Shown piece after piece: positions 13,471 through 61,135 of a stretch of 64,000 bases of DNA. The notes under the pieces are model-generated. The model had not been told where the DNA came from, ran no database searches, and worked only from the letters and a program-made list of their open reading frames with translations. The translations under genes were made by a program, and so were the position numbers. The DNA is from Eledone cirrhosa (Eukaryota), in assembly GCA_964016885.1 (NCBI GenBank), contig OZ024743.1, positions 348,626,001-348,690,000 of the forward strand, given 5' to 3'. Positions within the stretch are counted from its first letter, which is position 1, and every line of letters begins with the position of its first letter.

Positions 13471-13670
13471 TAGGAAACCAGTAAGACCCCGACAGCTGAG
13501 CTCAAGCCGTTTTCGACGGCTAATTCTGGGTCCAGAATTAGCCGTCGAAAACGGCTTGAGCTCAGATGTCGGGGTCTTACTGGTTTCCTATTACCCACTC
13601 TACTACCTCAAATATTGAGTACTTTGGTGCGTTTATGGTCCACCTGGTTCCTTACCACATTTCCTTTCGT
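13471..13670 (+). mobile_element. Fold-back mini-element family A (half-HHR palindrome plus tail)
   Basis: Palindrome 13471-13590 containing GAAAacggcttgagctcagatGTCgggg, then a tail with cactc..gagtac. (TA)n on both sides. Confidence 0.85.
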
Positions 13671-13745
13671 TATATATATATATATATATATATATATATA
13701 TATATATATATATTATATATATTCGTTATATATATAGATTCGTTT

Positions 13746-14287
13746 GCAATTATGCAAAACAAGCCTCAATGATATACCCATGTCAGTAGAATGAACACTT
13801 CATTCTTGTTCTTGTGTTGGCATGCGAACAGAACTGCAGAGACTAATGTTTTCTGGGTATAACCCTTCATCAGTACAGATCACTATTCACCTGCCAAAAC
13901 TGTCAGAGCTAGTGAAAATATATGCTATTTTCAAAAATACATAGTGATTGATTGGCCTGATTTGCATATTAGCAGACCGGCTGATCAGTCAGATCTGCAT
14001 ATTAGCAGATCCACTCATCAGTCAGATTTGTATATCAGCAGACAGGCCAGTCAATTTCATGTATACGAGCGATAAATGGCCAGCTTTGCCAAATTCAAAT
14101 AAAAAAGAAAATTTTCGCTCTACATGGGCTGAATACAATAAACTCAGATTACATTTTATTGTATTCAGCCATGTAGAGCGAAATGAAGGGTGATACCCAG
14201 AAAACATTAGTGTCTGCAGTTTCTGTTCGCATGCCACTTCAATGCCGCTGACATGGCTATAAAATTGAGGGTTGTTTTGCATAATTG
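13746..14287. mobile_element. TA-flanked element with ~110-125 bp inverted termini; HHR at 13834-13878 (-)
   Basis: 13746-13870 is inverted relative to 14183-14287. Minus strand: ctgta CTGATGA agggttataccca GAAAacattagtcTC tgcag. The other arm has GAAAaca-ttag-tGTC tgcag. Confidence 0.7.
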
Positions 14288-14396
14288 TATGTATATATAT
14301 ATATAATATATATTATATATATAAAGAAAAAGGGATGAAATCGAAAATGCAACTGAAGTCTTATTTTTTTTTTTAAATATATATATTTATTTGGTT

Positions 14397-14435
14397 CCTT
14401 TACCGGTTTTCGCAGTTCTTCTGCTTTTCAAAAGG
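14397..14435 (-). ncRNA. Minimal type I hammerhead (U3-A8 variant) in the inverted pLTR
   Basis: cctt TTGAAAA gcag aagaa ctgc GAAAa ccgg TA aagg (one extra A relative to the 3' copy). Confidence 0.65.
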
Positions 14436-57227: not shown

Positions 57228-57294
57228 TTTTATCTGATGAAAACACAAATATTATTGTTTGATGATGTTTGTTTTTGAAATGCGCATAATAAAA
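57228..57294 (+). ncRNA. Type I hammerhead (mirror copy 57035-57101, -)
   Basis: ttttat CTGATGA aaacacaaat...gtttgttttt GAAA tgcgca TA ataaaa. Stem III is the palindrome ATGCGCAT. Confidence 0.8.
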
Positions 57295-58435
57295 TATATT
57301 GAACTCCTTTAACCATCTTTTGATCTTATATTATATATATATATATATATATATATATATATATATATATATATATATATATATATATATATATAAATAT
57401 ATATACGCATAAATACGGGTACAAATATGCTCACACACACGCATAAACGCACACGCACACAGAAATACACATATACGGCCATACATATACACACTCAGAG
57501 AAATGAACAGACACCAACGTATCATTTTTAAAGCCTTAGAAAGCCAGAGCATGTTTCTATGAGAGAGAGATTAGGTGAGAATATCAAACTAAATGCCTGC
57601 ATGTAGACGGTCGCGCCAATCATAAGACTTGTTTTGAAAAGCCCCAGTAATGTTTCCTGGCGTAGCTATATGGAAAACTTTCTAAAGCCTTATTCTCTTT
57701 TGAATATTGTTATTTCTATATATGATATGAAGGCTAAAAAAAACACTTGTTGATAGTGCAGTTTTAAATCAACATATGTTGATTTAAAACTGCACTATCA
57801 ACAAGTGTTTTTTTTAGCCTTCATATCATATATAGAAATAACAATATTCAAAAGAGAATAAGGCTTTAGAAAGTTTTCCATATAGCTACGCCAGGAAACA
57901 TTACTGGGGCTTTTCAAAACAAGTCTTATGATTGGCGCGACCGTCTACATGCAGGTATTTAGTTTGATATTCTCACCTAATCTCTCTCTCATAGAAACAT
58001 GCTCTGGCTTTCTAAGGCTTTAAAAATGATACGTTGGTGTCTGTTCATTTCTCTGAGTGTGTATATGTATGGCCGTATATGTGTATTTCTGTGTGCGTGT
58101 GCGTTTATGCGTGTGTGTGAGCATATTTGTACCCGTATTTATGCGTATATATATTTATATATATATATATATATATATATATATATATATATATATATAT
58201 ATATAATATAAGATCAAAAGATGGTTAAAGGAGTTCAATATATTTTATTATGCGCATTTCAAAAACAAACATCATCAAACAATAATATTTGTGTTTTCAT
58301 CAGATAAAACAGGAGAACATGATATGAAGGCTAAAAAAAACACTTGTTGATAGTGCAGTTTTAAATCAACATATGTTGATTTAAAACTGCACTATCAACA
58401 AGTGTTTTTTTTAGCCTTCATATCATGTTCTCCTG

Positions 58436-58502
58436 TTTTATCTGATGAAAACACAAATATTATTGTTTGATGATGTTTGTTTTTGAAATGCGCATAATAA
58501 AA
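58436..58502 (+). ncRNA. Type I hammerhead (mirror copy 58243-58309, -)
   Basis: Appears identical to 57228-57294. Confidence 0.8.
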
Positions 58503-61135
58503 TATATTGAACTCCTTTAACCATCTTTTGATCTTATATTATGCATACTCCAGTCCCACAAACTGTAGAGTGCTTCTTATCCGATATCTGCATTGCTTTA
58601 TTGTACTACAATAAAACTCACCTCCTACATTTATATATATATATATATATATATATATATATATATATATATATAATTACTTCATTTACATATATATATA
58701 TATATATACGTATAAATACGGGTACAAATATGCTCACACACAAACATATTTACACACACGCATAAATGCATACGCCCACAGAAATACACATATACGGCCA
58801 TACATATACACACTCAGAGAAATGCACAGACACCAACGTATCATATTTAAAGCCTTAGAAAGCCAGAGCATGTTTCTATGAGAGAGAGATTAGGTGAGAA
58901 TATCAAACTAAATGCCTGCATGCAGACGGTCGCGCCAATCATAAGACTTGTTTTGAAAAGCCCCAGTAATGTTTCCTGGCGTAGCTATATGGAAAACTTT
59001 CTAAAGCCTTATTCTCTTTTGAATATTGTTATTTCTAGTGATATCATTCTATTTGACTGACTACAATCTCAGACATTTTGAGTGAACTGAGCGCAGAATT
59101 AACACTTGCTAATTATGCATATGTTTGCGTGTGTATATGTTTATATATAAATTTATAATTATCTGAAAGTTTGTGTCTTTGTAGTAGTCTTTTGATTTCA
59201 ATAGTTGTATATTTGTGTTGTATATGTTCTATATATATATATATATATGCATATATATATATATATATATATATATATATATATATATATATATATATAT
59301 ATATATATATATATATATATATATATATATATATATATATATGCATTTATATATATATATATATATATATATATATATATATATATATGCATTTATATAT
59401 ATAGATGGAGGAAGTTATAGTTCACTTGAAGCATTGTGTAATGAGGTATAAACGTTTGTATATGTATAATACAGCCAAAACAATGCAGGTATGGACATAG
59501 AATAAAGAATGCAAATGGAAAAGATATTGTTGACAATTAGTCTTTTGCCTTAGATTTATTTAAATGTCCTTCATTTTAGAGATAATATCTCTTCTTCGGA
59601 GGGAAGTAAAGCGGTTAAACCAGTGTTCTAAATAGCTTTCCAAGGCATGATTTGGCAAGCTATATATATATATACATATATGTATGTGTATATACATATA
59701 TATATATATATATATATATATATATATATATATATATATATATATATATATATATAGTAATATACGTATAAATAAACACAGTAAATTTCGTGTCTAAAAT
59801 TACGAGGGTAGAGAATACCACAAATGTTTTAAATATTTAATCTTAAACATACAGTAGGATATAATTTTATACTGACCGTATAAAAAACATTTCATCTCTC
59901 GGACAGATTACAGATTAAAGATCACACACACGCTCACCGTAACAGTTTAACTGTCTCACCCATATGACCTTCAGTTCATGTCATCTACAGCGTCAACTAA
60001 CTAAGTGATCCCACATTAACACCATGAAGACCTCTGCACCTCATAGGTCATCTACCTTCGTCGCTCCCTATAACCATGGATACACACCCTGTGCTCCTCC
60101 CCACCATTACCGTGTCTCGTACTTACTACTACTACACACACACATGAACGCTCCCTTCCAGCTCACTTCCGTTCGGCGTGCGCCACCATATCCCCCACCT
60201 TTCATCCTGCCTCACTTCCGCTCTCTTAATAGTTCTCCAAGCTTCGCATATACGCCTTTGCTACCTCTTCTCTGAACTGGATTACACCAAATACTCCAAA
60301 ATACACACACACATACCCATACATAAACATCCACATATATACAAACACAAACACAACCACAGCTCTCAAGTTGATAAGAACATACACACAAACACACATA
60401 AACACACAAGCATCCGACACATATGTGGAAATAGGCACATGCGAAAACACGCACTCACACACATAGAAACAACAGTAAATATCATATACACAAAGATGCA
60501 CAAACCCACAGACATACCCAAACATAAACATACACACACACACAATAGCTTCCCTTACAAATAATAAAAAGTCGACAACGACAAGCGCAAACACATATAC
60601 CAGTGCGCATACATCAACTACATAAGACTCAGAGATATCGATGTCCACACACATACACACACACTCAGACTAAAGCCACACACCTCTACCAATTTCTTCC
60701 TTTCGGCACACACAGACACACGCAACCACACCCATGACAGCCCTGTATCCTCCACGTTTGCCTCCCAGGGCACCATAATATTCTTTCTCCTCCCCATAAT
60801 ATTCTCTTCCCTATAATATTTTTCACCCCAATTCCCTTTCCTAACCCTCACACTTTATGCATTCATTCACCTGTGTATTTTTGCATTGCTGTATTTGGTT
60901 TGTTTCATTTATTAACTATATATATATGGGATATTTCTATTCCAAAATATACACCATTAAATATAAAAACTGCGCGTTGAGATGTGGTGTCACAAGGACA
61001 TAATTGAATATTTTGCATTCAATATTGACTTGATTATACACGGCATCACTTGCATTCACAAGGTAGGTTGAGCTGGTTTAAGTCCGCGAAACCAATAGAT
61101 GGGAGTGGGGGGGGGGGGGGGGGGTAATAATGCTT

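Follow-up and report, generated by a model that had tools for sequence, protein, structure and literature searches.

The stretch of DNA analyzed here, called the window below, comprises 64,000 nucleotides of Eledone cirrhosa (contig OZ024743.1, positions 348,626,001 to 348,690,000). The window is AT-rich and rich in (TA)n, and many short fold-back insertions carrying hammerhead ribozyme cores lie inside its (TA)n runs. It also holds two long, decayed Penelope-like elements (PLEs): a Neptune-like element at 14324..18572 (+) and an element of the Hydra clade at 38974..42220 (+). The subject of this work is a small bulged hairpin, found downstream of the hammerhead in Hydra-clade PLEs and in some of the short insertions, a few nucleotides before which the insertions end.

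An ACTC…GAGTRC pair, kept over unrelated loops in five families (A to E), had been described in the original prediction; the quoted motifs were all found in place, as were the ACTC sequences at 42086 and 18517. The pair was identified as the lower stem of a bulged hairpin with the consensus RCTC-Y…R-TH-GAGYRC, in which a 4-bp lower stem and a covarying upper stem are separated by a 2-nt bulge on the 3' side. This hairpin occurs in 11 small hammerhead elements that form the five non-alignable families A-E. In all 11 copies the stem is followed by the 2-nt 3' bulge (TT, TC or TA) and by 2-5 more pairs, the first upper-stem pair being T-A in families A and B and C-G in families C, D and E. The kept stem was thus confirmed and found to covary, but the loop is not unrelated throughout, since the 2-nt bulge and the compensatory upper stem belong to the motif. 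The 100 nt before ACTC gave no between-family alignment beyond that of shuffled sequences, except weakly for C-E (7/200) and D-E (10/200).

Family A has five copies: A1 at 13597..13622 (+), in a fold-back element (13474-13670) whose tail-less arm stops 5 nt before the equivalent position; A2 at 36893..36919 (+), in the fold-back 36736-36957; A3 at 36323..36348 (-), in the fold-back 36277-36478; A4 at 35953..35978 (-), in the fold-back 35904-36106; and A5 at 18676..18701 (-), in a single arm (18630-18775). The last four are additional to those first listed. In family B, the hairpin of B1 (36646..36666, +; fold-back 36502-36714) lies 27 nt past the hammerhead cleavage site and that of B3 (19123..19143, -; single arm 19081-19222) 30 nt past it; B2 is found at 20046..20066 (-), in the fold-back 20005-20203. 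The family C hairpin has a long loop and lies 60 nt past the cleavage site (42545..42586, +; fold-back 42281-42611). Family D has its hairpin at 58547..58573 (+), in the fold-back 58205-58631, and a second fold-back at 56998-57331 with the tail on neither arm. The family E hairpin is at 48405..48426 (-), in a tailed arm that starts at 48343; the tail-less inverted arm stops at 49129. The hairpin is present in exactly one arm of 9 of the 10 window fold-backs, one family D fold-back being without any.

The loose pattern used first gave 16 matches in the window, overlaps included, against a mean of 4.27 (maximum 10) in 100 block shuffles, and the refined bulged pattern gave 12 sites against a mean of 0.3 (maximum 2) in 100 shuffles. 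Eleven of these 12 sites belong to families A-E. As the refined pattern was defined after inspection of the window data, the weight of the argument is carried by independent loci selected by protein.

Ninety-five such loci (L048-L142) were picked by a Hydra protein alignment alone, blind to the motif; 17 came from contigs of genomes, and the other 78 belong to the best 80 among at least 529 matches in metagenomes. Hydra elements have been described as having a C-terminal GIY-YIG endonuclease (EN), the motifs DKT, RWK and CxCX5C, a canonical hammerhead and (TA)n targets (Craig et al. 2021, PMC8557442). The consensus of our query alignment, on which this was tested, has RWK, DKT, CxCX5C and the C-terminal EN, in agreement with that definition, and the 95 loci match the query at 37-50% identity in their best segment.

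A hammerhead was called in 71 of the loci (103 copies, 59 families). Among the 95 copies with a long stem III, 18 with less than 85 nt of downstream sequence were set aside, leaving 77. RCTC-N5-40-GAGYRC was found within 150 nt of the hammerhead in 65 of these 77 copies and in 38 of 42 informative families, compared with a mean of 0.65 families (maximum 4) in 500 shuffles and with 5 on the reverse strand. Most of the 12 motif-negative copies are ends that stop before the hairpin. When the start of the open reading frame (ORF) was used as anchor, independently of hammerhead calling, a hairpin was found at most 130 nt upstream in 63 of 72 cases, and a covariance model gave matches in 13 of 23 further Hydra loci, including 3 of the 9 misses of the ORF-anchored search. 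A second hairpin follows the first in 22 of the 38 families, 55-81 nt downstream (median 63). Published consensi agree with these results: by eye, Hydra-2_Amil and Hydra-2_Ajap (PMC8557442, File S7) have a G-C version of the motif after the hammerhead, and Hydra-1_Ajap has two copies at its 5' start. The motif is real and extends well beyond the window.

The structure was examined in 60 locus hairpins, in which the 5' arm was taken as the nearest RCTC only, with no rule favoring the first upper-stem pair (5:-3). That pair is Watson-Crick in 58 of 60 hairpins (35 C-G, 22 T-A and 1 G-C); permutation gave a mean of 30 and a maximum of 44 in 20,000 trials, and slid partners gave 1-11 of 60. The next pair, 6:-4, is Watson-Crick in 42 of 60 hairpins against 17.7. 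The T-A/C-G state changed at least six times on a quick tree of 32 ORFs, four of the changes being forced by strongly supported branches. In the lower stem, pair 1 is G-C in 57 of the 60 hairpins and A-C in 3, and the 11 window copies all have A-T there; L049 and L054 have pair 3 reversed, which gives a GCAC/GTGC lower stem. Position -2, which lies outside the search pattern, is T in 60 of 60 hairpins, and position -1 is never G. The trailing RC, which is part of the search pattern, is unpaired yet common to the hairpins, which suggests a sequence-specific contact.

The 60-hairpin count is the main test; pair counts from 8 sequences and from a model-fitted alignment are supportive only. Variable loops hampered MAFFT, and subsets of equal length were aligned instead. 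A model built from 8 hairpins from outside the window placed the sites of families A, B and D as its top 8 matches in the window; family E ranked 12th, and C and A2 were missed.

Insertion ends in the window were taken as the last base common to a tail-less arm and a tailed copy. This base lies 5 nt before ACTC in A1, A2, B1, B2, the Hydra PLE and the Neptune PLE, 6 nt in A3, 4 nt in C and D, and 2 nt in E. For A5, diverged partners placed it 6 and 10 nt before ACTC, and for A4, B3 and the second Neptune copy no partner arm was found in the window. Reads with the same species label, obtained by restriction site-associated DNA sequencing, were mapped to 36276-36958, and both end types of family A, tail-less and tailed, were seen. 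Among the 21 listed of 954 loose-end rows, the tail-less arms had 2040 and 1711 reads and the tailed ends 1353-6477 per row. (TA)n follows 36887 in 113 contigs, 5 nt before the ACTC of A2.

The same geometry was found in the protein-selected loci. Within 140 nt, 32 of 104 copies pass into (TA)n, and for 19 of these a read-through relative fixes the junction; 17 of the 19 end 2-6 nt before a hairpin. When the junctions were collapsed by family and hairpin, 11 of 12 fell at 2-6 nt and showed 1-8 nt of microhomology to (TA)n; under a rough uniform null, the probability of 11 of 12 is about 1e-9. Six of the 12 lie at hairpin 1 and six at hairpin 2 (the first hairpin of L049 being a variant at +56). 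The 13 remaining junctions fall at +32 to +56 and at +88 to +117, where the two hairpins are expected, with none between. Immediately upstream of the hairpin, positions -8 to -5 are A or T in 53-54 of 60 hairpins, and TA starts at -6 in 27 of 60 and at -8 in 21 of 60, compared with at most 10 of 60 from -9 to -30.

Since insertions end 2-6 nt before hairpin 1 or hairpin 2, the tail corresponds to hairpin 1 together with the spacer, tail-less ends lying before hairpin 1 and tailed ends before hairpin 2. The window tails, 62-85 nt from ACTC, are close in length to the 55-81 nt hairpin spacing. Several expectations of the original prediction were borne out by these data: enrichment over shuffled sequence, a near-fixed distance between stem and insertion end in window families and loci alike, junctions tied to the motif, and TA microhomology just upstream. 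The single tail hairpin that it described is a true but incomplete picture, full elements bearing two hairpins with the tail as the spacer between them. The geometry of hairpin and junction fits a signal that positions priming.

Controls were small, and "Hydra-specific" is used here as a provisional term; within this set the motif was not found outside Hydra-type elements. The hairpin was present in 0 of 3 informative families with short-stem hammerheads, and the listed short-stem and non-Hydra hammerheads had none except for one match behind a (TA)11 run, which we read as a nested element. Fifteen Neptune-type loci gave no convincing match to the model, the one weak match lying in a coding region; an ORF-start control in Neptune gave 0 of 8 but is weak, as the anchor is not the true start. 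An 8-mer comparison of Naiad, Chlamys and Hydra consensi found complete hairpins in Hydra entries only, among the 23 of 24 places listed, in a text whose line breaks can hide matches. Hammerhead pattern matches in five assemblies were mostly noise.

Two short-hammerhead copies, L174 (-, near 3899) and L179 (+, near 10478), share the blocks TATGAAGA and ATTGGATG and differ in their downstream sequence; the blocks may be an end signal in a different PLE clade. Contigs with animal PLEs, among them nested clusters of PLEs in (TA)n, occur in several assemblies that carry bacterial genome labels (L001-L064, G001) and are host contamination. No PLE relatives were found in viral contigs.

The Hydra-clade PLE of the window (38974..42220) is 3.25 kb long, with broken frames and a missing RT (reverse transcriptase) core; by definition, Hydra elements have a single ORF and are generally below 3 kb. 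It has an inverted pseudo-long terminal repeat (pLTR) at 38974-39111, a canonical hammerhead from 41966 (CTGATGA and GAAA cores, stems I-III), and an insertion into (TA)n. The GIY-YIG domain is C-terminal and, by eye, is without CCHH and is flanked by CxxC and CxH; the DKG motif is modified to DKT (ADKT in the translation), and the linker retains CNC, the third cysteine of CxCX5C being a serine in this decayed copy. The translated frames begin downstream of the place expected for RWK. A tblastn search matched the element to the Hydra-type protein P0259 (5e-32) and gave no match to the Neptune-type P0004. Relatives of the decayed EN were obtained by a HMMER search, none having been returned by a word-based search. 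The name Naiad, under which this element had been introduced, was rejected, as the EN is C-terminal rather than N-terminal and a canonical hammerhead is present. ACTC is found at 42086, 5 nt past the tail-less boundary; the 3' arm is degenerate and the hairpin incomplete.

The Neptune-like PLE (14324..18572, RT and GIY-YIG) served as a control and is not a member of the group. Its label is suggested by the zinc-finger linker, and among named proteins the closest to its long RT-GIY-YIG frame is one of Octopus. Although its cACTC had been counted as a member of the motif, the ACTC at 18517, 5 nt past the boundary, has no loop and does not form this hairpin, in line with the Neptune-type loci above. 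The Neptune-like tails at 18517 (+) and 49785 (-), ACTCGTGT and ACTCGAGT, are loopless and lie 5 nt past the tail-less boundary, the same offset as that of the Hydra hairpin; this may be chance or the remnant of a different signal. The hammerhead of the Neptune-like pLTR (18395-18445 and 14390-14440) is a U3-A8 core variant, as reported for Schistosoma (PMC4209133).

Other features of the window concern its hammerheads and fold-backs. In family A (for example 18712-18775) only the 3' half of the hammerhead is present, namely GAAA, stem III with a palindromic loop, and GUC; the GAAA is sequestered by a competing hairpin, and CTGANGA occurs in 0 of 5 copies. The motif was not found in two other window families, with CTGATGA at 13362, 12734, 26355, 49352, 13873 and 14183. 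One CTGATGA family (13267-13416, 12715-13069, 26290-26423 and 49325-49693) has no evident GAAA box or hairpin, and its fold-back at 13267 has the extension on both arms. The twelfth match to the refined pattern (25302..25328, +) is unexplained and does not belong to a (TA)n-flanked element: 27 nt past the hairpin lies a hammerhead-like core (25356) whose stem III is palindromic, and about 110 nt further comes another GAGTGC. The whole unit (25302-25470), which lacks (TA)n flanks, may be a decayed tandem unit or a chance match. Around the family D fold-backs, 56396-59235 contains nested perfect inverted duplications of several hundred bases each, due either to recent rearrangement or to an assembly artefact. 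A 340-bp fold-back at 61135-61473 (89% identity, no (TA)n flanks) is probably an element resembling a miniature inverted-repeat transposable element. An Rfam search of the window gave no match at the gathering score among the 150 of 205 matches listed.

We give a probability of roughly 0.6 to the following reading: Hydra-clade PLEs carry twin bulged hairpins behind the hammerhead, each of which would bind the RT-endonuclease on the RNA and set an internal RT start on the TA-rich patch. It builds on the observed motif, covarying structure, tandem pair, junction distances, TA-rich patch and microhomology. RT reads RNA 3' to 5', so a hairpin just 3' of an insertion end sits behind the first copied base. 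The protein would grip the hairpin and present the TA-rich patch to the primer, a nicked (TA)n target that would pair with the patch and prime there. Priming at hairpin 1 would yield a tail-less end, and priming at hairpin 2 would copy hairpin 1 and the spacer, giving a tail. Use of one site per target strand, the weakest step of the proposal, would produce a fold-back insertion with the tail at one end.

Families A-E appear to be non-autonomous passengers of Hydra-type enzymes that use an A-U version of the first pair, as suggested by the shared hairpin, the (TA)n targets and the hammerheads. The families first described as unrelated are indeed non-alignable, but all of them are probably served by one clade. 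A more far-reaching version, programmed twin priming, is offered tentatively: the hairpin, present as two tandem copies across several animal phyla, would load a dimeric, telomerase-like RT-endonuclease, its two protomers at two fixed starts within the RNA.

Several observations weigh against this reading. An autonomous element with an intact A-U version was not found, the Hydra PLE of the window has the 5' arm only, and hairpin 2 was never seen in the window families A-E. Four of the 42 informative families lack the strict motif, one of them having a compensatory variant, and the consensi of Hydra-1_Amil, Hydra-1_Crog and Hydra-1_Obim showed degenerate forms only, by eye. Two of the 19 junctions with a read-through relative lie 10 and 13 nt before a hairpin. 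At 36574-36643, head-to-tail junctions of family B, placed just before the hairpin, occur in 3 contigs and in a minority of the reads; the resulting unit of about 78 nt has the hammerhead but no hairpin and resembles a retrozyme repeat. Isolated window hairpins are weak (-1.3 to -6.2 kcal/mol, z from -1.4 to +0.1) and other folds often win in sequence context, so that folding probably depends on protein. Evidence on the strand points both ways, with 9 G-U against 4 A-C in upper stems and with 3 of 22 second hairpins having A-C at pair 1, which would read G-T on the other strand. By eye, RCTC…GAGYRC is absent from the template of the Poseidon element PAc (PMC11167929), as far as it is given there, so the one PLE with mapped starts uses another signal. 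The roles of the hairpins in binding and priming are proposed from sequence comparison.

The same junction geometry and covariation would be expected if the hairpin acted at the DNA level, the GIY-YIG EN recognizing it in single-stranded cDNA or in an extruded donor, nicking the TA-rich patch at a fixed distance, and trimming a longer intermediate to either end type. Such an origin of the tail, by EN-mediated resolution, was proposed for these inverted insertions with a tail at one end (PMC8557442), cutting of plasmid DNA by the D. virilis EN required the tail (cited in PMC11167929), and the A-C at pair 1 of second hairpins would be G-T on the minus strand. We consider this unlikely, as the internal RT starts of PAc explain its tail without trimming (PMC11167929) and loops of 8-32 nt speak against a plain double-stranded site; the excess of G-U over A-C in sense upper stems argues weakly in the same direction.

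Processing or termination of the RNA is less likely still. Here the hairpins, possibly mimics of the tRNA D arm, would create RNA 3' ends a few nucleotides upstream, and ordinary priming at these ends would yield both end types. The lower stem with the R and C that follow resembles a tRNA D stem with positions 26-27, and the pattern also matches tRNA-like strings in the assembly G001. The 5' arm, however, is followed by a paired pyrimidine and not by the A of a D loop; ARAGORN found a tRNA in 0 of 21 loci tested, and an anticodon-like arm follows the hairpin in only 4 of 59. A tRNA or the head of a tRNA-derived short interspersed nuclear element was rejected on the last two counts, the likeness being one of resemblance only. 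For PAc, RNA-seq read ends were reported at the start sites, which would agree with processing, but its RT starts internally on unprocessed RNA (PMC11167929).

An alternative in which the hairpins serve the 5' leader as promoter or translation elements, with junctions clustering through AT-richness or a set distance from the hammerhead, is improbable, although the leader is AT-rich and in 21 of 22 families 13-40 nt separate the end of hairpin 2 from the first ATG. The ORF-less families A-E keep the hairpin amid non-alignable flanks, the junction offset holds at 2-6 nt across distances of 25 to 61 nt from cleavage site to hairpin, and the junction statistics given above argue against this explanation as the sole one. 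Chance matches with shared ancestry and no function are refuted for Hydra-type elements by the position-specific enrichment and by compensatory changes that recur on the tree. The bare sequence is itself no rarity, the loose pattern occurring about 4 times per shuffled window and at background rate in the 12-Mb assembly G001 (156 against 153 in the control), and chance is still the best reading of the Neptune cACTC.

The preferred reading, internal priming set by twin hairpins, has a parallel in the only PLE end-choice biochemistry found, that of one lizard element, for which no conserved signal is named in the text available. PAc (Frangieh et al. 2024, PMC11167929) has two internal RT starts downstream of the hammerhead with the tail between them, requires RNA 3' of the start sites, has AT-rich targets and a protein predicted to be a dimer, and carries an AC-rich stem loop at the internal RT start. 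PAc and Hydra elements share this two-start geometry but differ in the signal: PAc starts inside its AC-rich stem loop, whereas Hydra elements end in a TA-rich patch 5' of the hairpin. PAc, moreover, is one element of another clade, while the Hydra hairpin is conserved in sequence and structure, lies 3' of each end in a non-coding leader, and is present in two copies. By eye, the PAc template also shows, within the 172 nt that are required, a small UCUC/GAGA stem without a bulge, located about 8 nt 3' of the +111-118 start region. This stem falls in coding sequence and could be coincidental.

The Hydra consensi of PMC8557442 contain the motif unremarked, the words "hairpin" and "stem-loop" being absent from the main text, and the tail is given there as 30-40 bp, compared with the 55-81 nt hairpin spacing found here. 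Families A-E resemble known short non-autonomous hammerhead-bearing pLTR derivatives; the accounts of these that could be consulted treat the ribozyme and the tandem or circular forms, and no downstream hairpin or end-defining signal was found in them. A literature search returned no description of the motif or of the paired hairpins; outside its reach lay most subscription papers, Repbase entries, figure images (Fig. S2C of PMC11167929 among them) and bioRxiv supplements. Apparently undescribed, the motif is a covarying cis-element by which both the tail-less and the tailed ends of Hydra-clade PLEs are defined.

RNA signals that place an RT are known from the R2 3' untranslated region, hepadnaviral epsilon and the telomerase template boundary elements, and in L1 twin priming two primings produce an inversion. 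In these systems, as proposed for Hydra PLEs, a structured RNA fixes the start of copying or two primings invert. Hydra PLEs would differ in that both primings, inside the RNA, are programmed by one small signal present twice and in that, unlike in the other systems, the signal is left out of the copy that it starts.

How PLEs choose their ends and why the tail is one-sided is an open question, which these findings address. A clade-wide motif gives predictions at nucleotide level: a start 2-6 nt upstream, two sites, and a tail equal to the spacer. It also marks the boundaries and the 5' leader of Hydra elements for annotation and assigns ORF-less hammerhead mini-elements to a likely helper clade. 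If programmed twin priming is true, one-sided tails and fold-back insertions would be accounted for, and a portable signal of about 25 nt would suffice to copy any RNA from a chosen internal position into (TA)n. The finding thereby bears on internal template selection by telomerase-related RTs.

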